Source: a virus (taxonomy: Duplodnaviria > Heunggongvirae > Uroviricota > Caudoviricetes). Taken from it: DNA of 40,652 nucleotides. The stretch's first letter is position 1; each line of letters starts with the position of its first letter. Made by a program: the position numbers and the translations under genes. Below, piece by piece: positions 22,575-39,100 of this stretch. The notes under the pieces were generated by a model. The model searched no databases and was not told where the DNA came from. It saw only the letters and a list, made by a program, of their open reading frames with translations. The stretch lies in the IMG/VR virus record IMGVR_UViG_2579778674_000010; one strand, written 5' to 3'.

Positions 22575-22861
22575 AAATAACCTTCCTTTCTCCAGATTTC
22601 TTGTGTGCGAAAAACACCTTCTGCATGCATCAGGCGTAATTCTTCTTTGGTGTAATCGCTGGTTTTTACCCGCCCGTCGATTAAATCGTGGCATGAGCTA
22701 CAGGCAATCGCTGCCTGCATATCGTGTGGTTTTGTCGCTGTTCCGCACGTCCCCGCCAGCCTGTAATGCGCCAGCACAGAGGTTTCGGGATTGTGATTGC
22801 AGTAGCCAGGGATTCTGATTTGGCACATCTGGCCTTTAGCCGCTTTACGTAAATCCACCAT
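22571..22861 (-). CDS. YbcO-like (DUF1364) nin-region protein, putative Zn-binding nuclease
   Basis: 96-aa ORF MVDLRKAAKGQMCQIRIPGYCNHNPETSVLAHYRL...IACSSCHDLIDGR, resembling the DLP12 YbcO family; four Cys. Confidence 0.6.
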   Translation of the reverse strand: MVDLRKAAKGQMCQIRIPGYCNHNPETSVLAHYRLAGTCGTATKPHDMQAAIACSSCHDLIDGRVKTSDYTKEELRLMHAEGVFRTQEIWRKEGYL

Positions 22862-23460
22862 TACGCAAACTCCAGTAACTGTGCGGCCACATTTTCGACT
22901 TCCTCCGGAGAGGAAAATTTACGGAACAGGATCCAGTTCCACAGCACATTCAGTACAGATTTATAAACCTGCTGAAACTCGGTTTCGTCCATGTTCGCAA
23001 ATGCGATAGATTTTGCCCTGCGCCCACGACTACCATCAGGATAAATATACTCGGTGTAAAATCCTGCCTGAATGGTTACCCACTCGCGGAAAGCGTCAAA
23101 CGACTTTAGCAATGCCGTATCCCGGGTTCTGCATGTCGCAACGGTATTAAGGTATTGCTCTGCGGCATCACTCAGGGCTGGAGTGTGTTCCCGACCTACT
23201 GATTCGCACAGGTAATCAACGAAGCCCGATACCAGTTTTCGTTCGCGAGGCGTGATCGCCCCACCGACCGGAGTCCAGTAATCGAATCCCAGTTGCAGGA
23301 GTTTGAAAAAACGCTTGTGGAATGCGTAGTTACGCACACGCTTAAAGTCTGCGTGTATCCACTCACCTATTTTGATTTGATGCAAAAAATCGCAACTCTC
23401 CGGCGTCGCCGGGAGAAGTAAACCAGAAGAGGTTTGTTTGACCAGTTGTATATGCGCCAT
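22861..23460 (-). CDS. YbcN-like (DUF1367) nin-region protein
   Basis: 199-aa ORF translationally coupled to the YbcO-like gene; recalled as the DUF1367 family found in nin regions. Confidence 0.55.
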   Translation of the reverse strand: MAHIQLVKQTSSGLLLPATPESCDFLHQIKIGEWIHADFKRVRNYAFHKRFFKLLQLGFDYWTPVGGAITPRERKLVSGFVDYLCESVGREHTPALSDAAEQYLNTVATCRTRDTALLKSFDAFREWVTIQAGFYTEYIYPDGSRGRRAKSIAFANMDETEFQQVYKSVLNVLWNWILFRKFSSPEEVENVAAQLLEFA

Positions 23461-23740
23461 TTCTCAATCTCTCGATGGCGCAGCGCAGCAGATGCCAGTT
23501 GTTCAGGCTGACGAATAAAGTATAAATAAACTGGCTATGGTGTAAAGCCCCACATAGCATGAACAAACACTACATATCAAATAGCTGGTACAAGGATAGA
23601 AATACGACATTTATTATTAAAAACGATTAGATAAATTACATTTTAATGTTATGCAAAAGTTCTTTTTTATCATAACATTTCAATAAAAGCATTACAGATG
23701 CAATCATCCCGTCATCATCAATTATTTAAGGTGGTTAAAC

Positions 23741-23827
23741 ATGGAAAATAACAAGTTCGCACATCTCGCTCCTTTTTTATCCGTAATCCTTTTCGCTTGT
23801 TGTTTTATATGGGCATTATTTTTATAA
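23741..23827 (+). CDS. Candidate small hydrophobic peptide (28 aa)
   Basis: ATG at 23741 preceded by AAGGTGG at ideal spacing. MENNKFAHLAPFLSVILFACCFIWALFL, a single predicted transmembrane helix. Lies in an AT-rich intergenic region. Confidence 0.3.
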   Translation: MENNKFAHLAPFLSVILFACCFIWALFL

Positions 23828-24218
23828 AGTAGCCACATGATAAGTTGCTGGAATCATATTTCCCACTCAAGTCATTAACATTTGATAAGATATATCTAAA
23901 AGGACGCCTTTACATTATTTATGTGTATATAATTTATTTATATACACAGTAAAGGTATCCTGGGAAAATATTTATCGTTAAAAAATACATCATAAATAAT
24001 TAAGCTGAAATTTCAGAACACAACTAATATACACAATAAGGTTCAGTAACAATAATCTATGTGGACTACATCGAGATTTTTTGATTAAACTTTAATAACT
24101 TATTCCTAACACACAGAATGCATAAACTAAAAGTAAAACAAATAGTTATACGAAAAACAACCATATTTATTATATCTTCTCCTCTAATCAACATATCAAT
24201 TATGTGTTTCATAACAGC

Positions 24219-24262
24219 TTGACATAACCCTCAAAAACACGCATTTATAATGCATGTTTTTG
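24219..24262 (+). promoter_or_regulatory. Putative promoter with an overlapping inverted repeat upstream of the YeaR-like gene
   Basis: TTGACA at 24219..24224 and TATAAT at 24246..24251 (spacing longer than optimal). Imperfect inverted repeat tcaaaaacacgcat-ttataa-atgcatgtttttga spans the -10 and ends at the ribosome-binding site. Confidence 0.35.
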
Positions 24263-24273
24263 AGGAGGTGGTT

Positions 24274-25374: not shown

Positions 25375-27700
<2,326 letters not shown>

Positions 27701-28001
27701 TTTAATTACCTTATATATCCAAACTCTTAATTTTCTCTTTTTTACCATAGGATTAATCCAAAATAAAGACCTTGTTGACTAAACCCTCATGTACAAAATG
27801 CACACTTACTCAAAAGGATCTGGAGGCAATCTCGACCTCCATGATTTAGTTCCTAGGGATAAGCAGAAATCTAGCACTGGATTAAAATTTAAAAATAATA
27901 ATCAATAGGTTATAATGGTTTTTATTCGCATCCATGGGATCTGCTGCTGCCCGCATGATGTTGGATGCGACGGCGCTGGCACGACCTCACCCGGTGAAAC
28001 G

Positions 28002-28448
28002 ATGAAACGCGAAAGGGTTGTTCTTCGGGAAGGTGCAGTTGGACTTTCAATCGATGACGTTGCAAAAGAGGCTGGCGTCAGTAAGGCAACGGTAATGTAC
28101 GATCATAAGTCAAAGCAAGATTTGCTCAGCGATCTCATCAGTCGCCTTATGCCAGTAGAGGAGGAACGTGTTCAGCAAGCGATAGCGGAAAGTAATAATA
28201 CCCCACATCCCGCACTCTATGGGCGAATTATTTCAGCCAGTAATGCTCTCAGTCATACTGAGAGAGCAGTAGTGCTGGCGGTCAGCGAATCGTTAACTAA
28301 CGATACGAATATCAGGGACACCATGCGTTCCTGCACAAACAAAGATTTGGATGAGATAAAAAGAGGACCAAAACCAGACGTTGCCGTCCTGGTATATTTG
28401 GCGTTATCTGGTATCTACTGCCAAGAATTTTTTGATTTTTACAAATGA
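28002..28448 (+). CDS. TetR/AcrR-like HTH protein, possibly truncated
   Basis: LSIDDVAKEAGVSKATVMYDHKSKQDLL resembles the TetR N-terminal HTH signature. Only about 148 aa from ATG 28002, shorter than typical TetR proteins. Divergent from the adjacent three-gene operon. The Cys-rich track extension from 27915 was not adopted. Confidence 0.4.
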   Translation: MKRERVVLREGAVGLSIDDVAKEAGVSKATVMYDHKSKQDLLSDLISRLMPVEEERVQQAIAESNNTPHPALYGRIISASNALSHTERAVVLAVSESLTNDTNIRDTMRSCTNKDLDEIKRGPKPDVAVLVYLALSGIYCQEFFDFYK

Positions 28449-38712: not shown

Positions 38713-38919
38713 ATGACAAAAACTTTGAGATATGACGATGTTAAACCATGTCCGTTTTGTGGTTGTCCATCAGTAACGGTGAAAGACATTTCAGGATATT
38801 ACCGGGCAAAATGCAACGGATGCGAATCCCGAACTGGCTATGGTGGAAGTGAAAAAGAAGCGCTCGAAAGATGGAATAAACGAACCACTGAAAATATTAA
38901 TGGAGGCGTTCATGTATAA
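38713..38919 (+). CDS. ralR: RalR (Lar) restriction-alleviation protein
   Basis: Start taken at MTKTLRYDDVKPCPFCGCPSVTVKDISGYYRAKCNGCESRTGYGGSEKEALERWNKR... (Cys4 zinc-ribbon-like); position downstream of recT as in Rac. Confidence 0.75.
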   Translation: MTKTLRYDDVKPCPFCGCPSVTVKDISGYYRAKCNGCESRTGYGGSEKEALERWNKRTTENINGGVHV

Positions 38920-39100
38920 AATTACCGCTACAATTGAAAAGGAAGGTGGCACTCCTACTAACTGGACAAGATATTCAAAATCTAAACTAACGAAATCAGA
39001 ATGCGAAAAAATGCTCTCAGGTAAAAAAGAAGCAGGCGTTTCCAGAGAGCAGAAAGTAAAACTGATAAATTTTAATTGCGAGAAACTTCAGTCCTCGTGA
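38912..39100 (+). CDS. ydaC: YdaC (DUF1187) small protein
   Basis: Start taken at MYKITATIEKEGGTPTNWTRYSKSKLTKSECEKMLSGKKEAGVSREQKVKLINFN... with GGAGG upstream; overlaps the ralR 3-prime end. Confidence 0.7.
   Translation: MYKITATIEKEGGTPTNWTRYSKSKLTKSECEKMLSGKKEAGVSREQKVKLINFNCEKLQSS

Follow-up and report, generated by a model that had tools for sequence, protein, structure and literature searches.

We identified a 28-codon open reading frame (ORF) in the spacer between the nin region and the cargo island of an Escherichia coli Rac-like prophage, which very probably is a real gene for a 28-residue single-pass membrane peptide. The explanation that best accounts for the evidence, to which we assign a probability of roughly 55%, is that it is a self-contained small-protein gene in the backbone of Rac/Qin-type lambdoid prophages, marking the left border of a cargo hot spot and encoding a membrane peptide whose translation is gated by the leader of its mRNA. 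The window, that is, the whole stretch of viral DNA analysed here (IMG/VR record IMGVR_UViG_2579778674_000010), is 40,652 nt long, and its best match, a chromosomal prophage of APEC O78:H4, is 100% identical to it. The gene and its ribosome binding site are located as follows.

23741..23827, + strand: small-protein gene encoding MENNKFAHLAPFLSVILFACCFIWALFL, with the stop codon TAA at 23825-23827; polar N-terminus (residues 1-8) and a hydrophobic helix (residues 9-28) reaching the C-terminus
23728..23734, + strand: Shine-Dalgarno (SD) sequence AAGGTGG, with TTAAAC (6 nt) between it and the ATG

An earlier note on this DNA had pointed to a 28-aa ORF with a near-ideal SD in an AT-rich spacer, and its peptide agrees with the one above, as does the SD, AAGGTGG placed 6 nt before the ATG. 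The 790-nt spacer has a GC content of 25-33% versus 46-55% in the flanking nin genes, a difference in base composition of the kind by which morons are recognized, and by our estimate from base composition the AAGGTGG 7-mer is expected ~0.03 times in this spacer. Elsewhere the SD reads AAGGTGA, AAGGTAG, AAAGTGA or AAAGCGA, and its spacing to the ATG is identical across lineages. The polar N-terminus and single hydrophobic helix described in the note are also recovered, with a mean Kyte-Doolittle hydropathy of -1.4 for residues 1-8 and 2.5 for residues 9-28; the latter value stays at 2.4-2.5 across all peptide variants, each of which retains M1-E2-N3-N4, H8, P11 and W24, together with one or more Cys at positions 20-22. 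The note had further placed the ORF between the nin region and the cargo island, and indeed nin/Q genes lie to its left, and DUF1971 and SIR2-Ham1-adenosine deaminase genes to its right. We infer that the peptide is a small inner-membrane protein, which would act in the host membrane of the lysogen.

Distribution of the gene in Escherichia genomes

A sensitive blastn search with window positions 23660-23900 as the query matched 1174 of 5426 complete E. coli genomes (22%), 464 of them over the entire query. In ~700 further genomes only positions 47/62/67-169 of the query matched, with ~80% identity; these correspond to 23706/23721/23726-23828 of the window, i.e., the SD and the ORF, and end one base beyond the stop codon. 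No tandem copies of the ORF were present in the E. coli genome matches. The more than 200 copies extracted from E. coli genomes, IMG/VR and metagenomes represent 20 intact nucleotide haplotypes and ~19 peptide variants (~17 in the main set and two known from metagenome contigs only), each of exactly 28 codons. The sole broken copy, at locus L006 (3016-3153), has an IS1 inserted within codon 20, and an apparently truncated copy at locus L174 merely reaches the end of the extracted stretch. Conservation of the ORF in related prophages, proposed in the earlier note as a check, is therefore borne out. At locus L003, an IS1 lies ~60 nt upstream of the conserved box described below.

Outside E. coli, we found the gene only in Shigella flexneri and Escherichia ruysiae when one genome per species was searched for 185,579 species, and a degenerate metagenome scan yielded nothing beyond this family and unrelated chance matches. 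The family, as delimited by these searches, is narrow, being confined to Escherichia and Shigella, although its lineages have diverged widely at synonymous sites (dS 0.6-1.3). The K-12 Qin prophage lacks the ORF and has rem at this site, and such presence in some related prophages (in 22% of the E. coli genomes) and absence from others is likewise a feature of morons. The gene has also escaped annotation: an exact look-up of four peptide variants in a collection of 15 billion proteins gave no match, RefSeq shows no gene between DUF1367 and DUF1971, and the peptide strings did not occur in a literature search, nor in the supplementary text files of two surveys, one of intergenic small genes in Sakai and one of the Enterobacteriaceae microproteome (PMC11188072).

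The reading frame is maintained by purifying selection

We compared three lineages of the gene, namely, the window type, the hokD-linked type and the L047 type. The ORF contains no indels across the 20 intact haplotypes, whereas the leader has several, and its frame alone is open in all haplotypes. A 38-aa antisense ORF (23722-23838, - strand) overlaps it, which we rejected as a gene since it is closed in other lineages. The dN/dS ratio calculated by the Nei-Gojobori method is 0.06-0.31 between the three lineages; the window and L047 types, for example, differ by 10 synonymous and 5 non-synonymous changes on 16.2 and 67.8 sites, respectively. The minimum numbers of changes at codon positions 1, 2 and 3 are 6, 12 and 22 (binomial p = 0.004). 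When the observed substitutions were redistributed over sites with the same base, and the outcomes scored for the lack of a stop codon together with no more amino-acid changes than observed, the permutation P values for the three lineage pairs were 1.5e-4, 1.8e-3 and <5e-5. Moreover, the replacements in the helix are hydrophobic-for-hydrophobic or small-residue swaps (A/V/T, I/V, L/V, C/F/L/S/G). As the dN/dS ratios, the codon-position counts, the permutation results, the indel-free frame and the conservative replacements all agree, the nucleotide comparisons show that the frame is under purifying selection as a protein. Hydrophobic ORFs readily arise in T-rich DNA (PMC11188072), a point that we counted against our preferred explanation. 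The comparative evidence is decisive in placing this ORF beyond chance. The earlier note had named a synonymous/nonsynonymous pattern inconsistent with coding as a sign against the ORF; the pattern found is instead that of a coding sequence.

A conserved box and the limits of the module

The similarity between lineages extends upstream of the ORF to a conserved box, which contains candidate promoter elements.

23610..23653, + strand: conserved upstream box TTTATTATTAAAAACGATTAGATAAATTACATTTTAATGTTATG, 44 nt; left edge of the module and probable promoter region
23614-23619, + strand: candidate sigma-70 -35 element TTATTA, inside the box
23637-23642 or 23632-23637, + strand: candidate -10 element TACATT or TAAATT, respectively, inside the box

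Across the 21 aligned haplotypes (alignment A3), no part of the module is as conserved as the box, which is 91-95% identical between lineages (93% for the segment). By comparison, the identity is 54-58% in the loop and 3' arm of the leader hairpin, 46-56% in the leader spacer, which contains indels (48% for the segment), 67-78% in the SD region and 80-84% in the ORF (80% for the segment), and beyond the stop codon the lineages are unrelated. A search with the box alone returned 120 loci, in 119 of which the ORF follows, the exception lying at a contig end, and the window contains no second copy of the box. These alignments show that the stretch from the box to the stop codon has evidently been inherited as a unit of ~220 nt with sharp edges.

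The promoter candidate in the box, TTATTA-17-TAAATT/TACATT, is kept in 20 of the 21 haplotypes and is weak (7/12 consensus matches), and this AT-rich DNA contains several alternative candidates. The conservation of the box exceeds what a promoter requires, so that a second role is probable. We found no terminator on the + strand in the window, and in the hokD-type lineage the ORF is followed by the shared hokD hairpin, which has no T-run on the ORF strand.

Some of these patterns might suggest that the module is a non-coding element with an incidental ORF, acting as a DNA site that regulates the divergent nin promoter, as an RNA, or as an anchor for recombination at the border of the cargo hot spot. 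Such an element would suit the box as the most conserved part, the near-invariance at the nucleotide level of CCTTTTTTATC and of the final 18 nt of the ORF, the end of homology between contexts at the stop codon, like that at a mosaic junction, and the presence of the nin promoter stretch next to the module in 198 of 203 loci. However, it would leave the excess of third-position changes and the low dN/dS ratios unaccounted for, as well as the lack of any indel or stop codon in 20 haplotypes, the conservative hydrophobic replacements and the constant spacing of the SD. We therefore consider it very unlikely.

The leader is predicted to fold with the Shine-Dalgarno sequence paired

Between the box and the ORF, we identified a 5' hairpin (H1ext) and two segments that could pair with the SD.

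23645..23679, + strand: 5' hairpin H1ext, AATGTTATGCAAAAG...CTTTTTTATCATAACATT, 13 pairs; probably at or near the mRNA 5' end
23667..23678, + strand: anti-SD arm of helix H2, pairing with 23724-23734 (SD)
23714..23719, + strand: local anti-SD AUCAUC, predicted to pair with GGUGGU of the SD in the minimum-free-energy fold of the window lineage

H1ext, which is formed by the arms AATGTTATG…CATAACATT plus four inner pairs, was recovered both as an inverted repeat and by RNAalifold. In the alignment, 93% of its cells are paired and three inner pairs show compensatory changes, the covariation in the leader stemming from few independent events in the three lineages; none of 500 shuffles attained the observed values. 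Since the G-U pairs of H1ext would become C-A mismatches on the other strand, the + strand RNA appears to be the folded strand. The transcript would thus have to start at or before 23645, which places the promoter inside the box.

For H2, 94.6% of the cells are paired, versus 25-51% when the partner is slid, and two pairs are altered on both sides (C-G/U-G/U-A; C-G/U-A). As its anti-SD arm overlaps the 3' arm of H1ext, the two structures are mutually exclusive. According to the partition function, H2 is populated in some haplotypes only and is not the dominant predicted fold in the window's lineage, where the partner of the SD is the local AUCAUC or the early coding region and the predicted unpaired probability of the SD is 0.15-0.25. 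In the hokD-linked lineage, CUCrUUU pairs with the SD and CCAUA with UAUGG (87.7% paired, with an A-U/G-U/G-C series). Thus, the helices that pair with the SD differ in architecture between lineages, and the SD is predicted to have an unpaired probability of 0.02-0.34 in eight of nine haplotypes, L047 being largely open (0.56). These folding models suggest, with moderate confidence, selection for a partly occluded ribosome binding site. Equally, we have moderate confidence that the module is self-contained, having a promoter within the box and a structured leader by which translation is limited.

Two copies of the decamer CTTTTTTATC are present in the module, at 23662-23671 in the leader hairpin and at 23772-23781 in codons 11-14 of the ORF, and the second copy lies within a stretch of the ORF where synonymous sites hardly vary. 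According to RNAalifold, this copy is paired with the 5' portion of the box (A3 columns 8-22 / 174-188), a predicted pairing that hints at a possible long-range 5'-3' interaction.

Antisense strand and comparison with type I toxins

The earlier note had suggested a search for an overlapping antisense RNA. We found a promoter-like site on the - strand that is present in all haplotypes, but no conserved terminator, fold or Rfam match.

23721..23747, - strand: candidate antisense promoter with -35 TTTCCA (23747..23742) and -10 AATAAT (23726..23721), present in 21 of 21 haplotypes

This site is the best-scoring conserved promoter candidate, with a spacer of 15 nt in the window and 16 nt in other lineages, and its -10 element takes the forms CATAAT, TATGAT, TATTCT, AATAAT and AACAAT. 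RNA transcribed from it would be antisense to the leader and the box. However, its -35 element is fixed by the coding sequence, as TTTCCA is the complement of TGGAAA in ATG-GAA-A (the Met-Glu-Asn codons), and its -10 element sits in AT-rich DNA. A small hairpin followed by a T-run occurs on the - strand inside the box of the hokD-linked lineage; it is lost or very weak in the window lineage and lacks the T-run in L047, and no fold or terminator on this strand is conserved among the haplotypes. We thus rejected a conserved - strand terminator or sRNA fold, as it is confined to the hokD-type lineage. A search of Rfam at the gathering threshold and at E <= 10 gave no match in or near the ORF. The sole gathering-threshold match in the window is the RalA sRNA (the RalR antitoxin; 38918-39096, - strand, 218 bits), which confirms the identity of the prophage as Rac-type.

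ShoB, Ibs, DinQ and TisB are peptides of 19-29 residues with one hydrophobic helix, and ShoB ends in …LLFL. The 28-aa product is within the size limit for type I toxins (<60 aa) and is hydrophobic, and its size, hydrophobicity and …ALFL end fall within the range of these four peptides. Their mRNAs are structured, with the ribosome binding site occluded, and their genes, like the small ORF, have often been missed by standard annotation. In a classical type I toxin-antitoxin system, the peptide would be depolarising, and a cis-antisense RNA starting from TTTCCA/(A/C)ATAAT and running across the leader and box would block translation or trigger decay. Such a system would make use of the conserved antisense promoter-like site, and it agrees with the mostly paired state of the SD in the predictions, with the hairpin and T-run on the - strand of the box in the hokD-type lineage, and with the residence of hokD and relBE at the same site; the extreme conservation of the box would suit a constraint on both strands. 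On the other hand, the window lineage and L047 have no - strand terminator or a very weak one, the G-U pairs in the covarying helices suit the + strand only, the antisense -35 is set by codons, and no tandem copies exist. Furthermore, since the synonymous sites of the ORF vary freely (dS 0.6-1.3), no antisense RNA constrains the coding part. The ORF has no sequence similarity to ShoB, Ibs, DinQ or TisB, no antitoxin RNA was found at its locus, and it differs from these genes in being prophage-borne and restricted to Escherichia and Shigella. In addition, searches of Pfam and NCBIfam showed no similarity to the Hok/Gef, Ldr, Ibs, ShoB, TisB or DinQ models. We therefore consider a type I system of this design unlikely, and it is doubtful that the peptide is the toxin of any such system.

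The prophage site of the small ORF, between the replication/cargo genes and the nin/Q genes, is also that of hokD (relF) and hokW-sokW of lambdoid prophages (PMC8621323), and Hok is likewise a small membrane peptide with conserved Cys. However, hokD is a separate module: the small ORF occurs without hokD in the window and L047, and hokD without the ORF in K-12 Qin. The ORF also encodes 28 rather than ~51 residues, and has neither an overlapping mok-like frame nor a Sok match. The hokW-sokW paper (PMC8621323) does not mention the neighbouring genes.

The gene lies at the constant edge of a variable cargo site

To the left of the ORF, the - strand carries DUF1367 (22861-23460), YbcO/DUF1364 and a Q-type antiterminator, followed by lysis genes and trkG. 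To its right lie DUF1971 (+ strand), the SIR2-Ham1-adenosine deaminase operon with a TetR gene, and the ydaS-W replication region. Among 203 loci, the ORF is followed by a convergent hokD in 131 (65%), by DUF1971 at a distance of 420 nt in 60, and by other genes in the rest, so that it is found in three or more downstream contexts. By contrast, the upstream 100 nt, a stretch containing a promoter-like site ahead of the nin genes, are present in 198 of the 203 loci, both where DUF1367 comes next and where a 92-aa hypothetical gene and DUF968 take its place. Because of this linkage, the small gene resembles backbone more than cargo. Gene order across these loci indicates that it behaves as a constant element of the backbone, bordering on the left a variable cargo/defence site, which holds SIR2-Ham1-deaminase in the window, hokD and AbiH at L004, and rem-hokD-relBE in K-12 Qin.

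Where hokD is present, it and the small ORF are arranged tail to tail, ~110 nt apart. At L003, L004 (3022-3370) and related loci, only ~20 nt separate the stop codon of the ORF from the hokD terminator hairpin AACCCGCTTCGGCGGGTT, which has its T-run on the - strand. As hokD is convergent and its terminator is this close, transcripts of the small gene that read through would be complementary to the hokD mRNA.

We made several further observations at this site. Upstream of DUF1367, the conserved stretch 23460-23560 contains a promoter-like sequence, TTTACA-16-TATACT (23546..23519, - strand; 10/12 matches), and an internal promoter ahead of the nin/Q genes would be unexpected for a lambdoid early operon. 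About 100 nt beyond the small ORF, at 23922-23948, there is a perfect 11-bp AT-rich palindrome, TGTGTATATAA/TTATATACACA, with a 5-nt loop and no T-run. A 17-nt inverted repeat at 24229-24265 (94% complementary, 3-nt spacer) covers the start of DUF1971 (YeaR-like) and is flanked by a perfect TTGACA (24218) and TATAAT (24245), with 21 nt between them; the repeat may be an operator, reminiscent of the NsrR sites of yeaR. The cargo operon (25375-28448, - strand) encodes a SIR2 protein (ThsA-like, PADLOC E = 9e-32), a Ham1/ITPase and an adenosine deaminase that matches the deaminase part of CARF_ADA (E = 3e-36), and the TetR gene is divergent to it. To judge from these matches, the trio looks like a candidate NAD/ATP-targeting anti-phage system with an ITP-cleaning enzyme.

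Relationship to known small proteins

We found no match for the peptide in Pfam and nothing significant in PHROG (E-values >= 0.1), and the lone NCBIfam match was a lipoprotein signal peptide below threshold (E = 0.03, 14 bits vs a cut-off of 35). We rejected a lipoprotein, which weak Rz1-/Lp6.6-like matches might suggest, because the lipobox [LVI][ASTVI][GAS]C is not conserved, as the commonest variants, …FVLCC and …FVFCC, have L or F at position -1; moreover, the N-region MENNK has no net positive charge, and the mature part would be just 8-9 residues. A leader peptide or uORF was also rejected, since no constant co-oriented gene lies downstream in the 203 loci.

KdpF, AcrZ and CydX are small E. 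coli peptides that modulate membrane proteins. KdpF, CydX, AcrZ, YohP and YnhF (PMC12648545) resemble the product of the small ORF in size class, in having a single helix, and in their discovery via conservation or Ribo-seq; however, their genes are chromosomal and usually adjoin, or are co-transcribed with, those of the partner complex, whereas the small ORF has no constant protein-coding neighbour. The intergenic smORF families of Enterobacteriaceae (PMC11188072) are similar in being hydrophobic, located in AT-rich intergenic DNA and under purifying selection, and differ in that the leader and box of our ORF are conserved as well. The Pfam and NCBIfam searches, which covered the models for known small membrane proteins, matched none of these, so that sequence supports membership neither in these families nor in those of the small toxins. 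We class the small ORF as a new gene family of an already known kind. Of the two functions proposed in the earlier note, type I toxin-like or membrane-modulating, the small hydrophobic peptide common to both stands; the type I part is doubtful, in view of the lack of a known family, an Rfam antitoxin and a conserved antisense structure. We consider a membrane-modulating small protein at least as likely as a type I toxin.

The peptide might also be a non-toxic accessory membrane protein, for example, for superinfection exclusion or the tuning of a transporter or sensor, which is made constitutively in the lysogen, with the leader serving mRNA stability only. This differs from our preferred explanation only in rejecting gated translation and membrane damage. 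Many characterized E. coli peptides of 25-40 residues bind and modulate larger membrane proteins (PMC12648545), and a hot spot with defence genes adjoins the ORF (SIR2-Ham1-deaminase in the window and AbiH at L004). In addition, the conserved H8, P11, W24 and Cys at 20-22 would suit a peptide with a specific contact surface better than a generic pore former. However, both neighbours vary, so that no conserved neighbouring gene offers itself as a partner, and the predicted occlusion of the SD is unexpected for a constitutive protein. A purely accessory role thus seems quite unlikely.

A model for expression and function

In our preferred explanation, the leader-gated backbone gene, a weak sigma-70 promoter in the box would give rise to an mRNA whose first nucleotides form the hairpin at 23645-23679. 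Its leader of ~100 nt would pair the SD with 23667-23678 or with the local AUCAUC, and since the leader can fold with the SD paired, translation would be held low or conditional. The product would be a 28-residue tail-anchored single-pass inner-membrane peptide with a cytoplasmic N-terminus. As transcription of the gene opposes the phage early operon, expression is expected mainly in the lysogen, where the peptide may act on the host membrane, either by perturbing it in a toxin-like manner or by binding a host or phage membrane protein.

A bolder version, which we hold to be distinctly improbable, is that the module founds a family of type I-like membrane toxins that is new, prophage-borne and restricted to Escherichia, and which acts as a fixed sentinel at the border of the defence hot spot under the control of a leader-helix switch. 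The switch would be between the 5' hairpin and the anti-SD helix and would be flipped by an antisense RNA from the promoter-like site over the start codon or by temperature, the G-U-rich SD helix resembling a thermometer of the fourU type. Such a peptide might have a part in abortive infection or help to time prophage induction.

Biological meaning

With the gene as delimited here, about one fifth of the complete E. coli genomes carry a gene that is missing from RefSeq and from a protein collection of 15 billion sequences. Its omission from annotation can be attributed to its length of just 28 codons, and the Ribo-seq surveys of small proteins in K-12 could not detect it since K-12 lacks it. 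As it is widespread, unannotated, absent from K-12 and located at the edge of a prophage defence hot spot, we consider it to be of moderate interest. If the peptide is inert, the gene would still correct the annotation and provide a landmark for the prophage hot spot with hokD, relBE, AbiH or SIR2-type cargo, whose constant edge it marks. If it is membrane-active, it would add a new family to the small prophage toxins and modulators, equipped with a compact leader switch.
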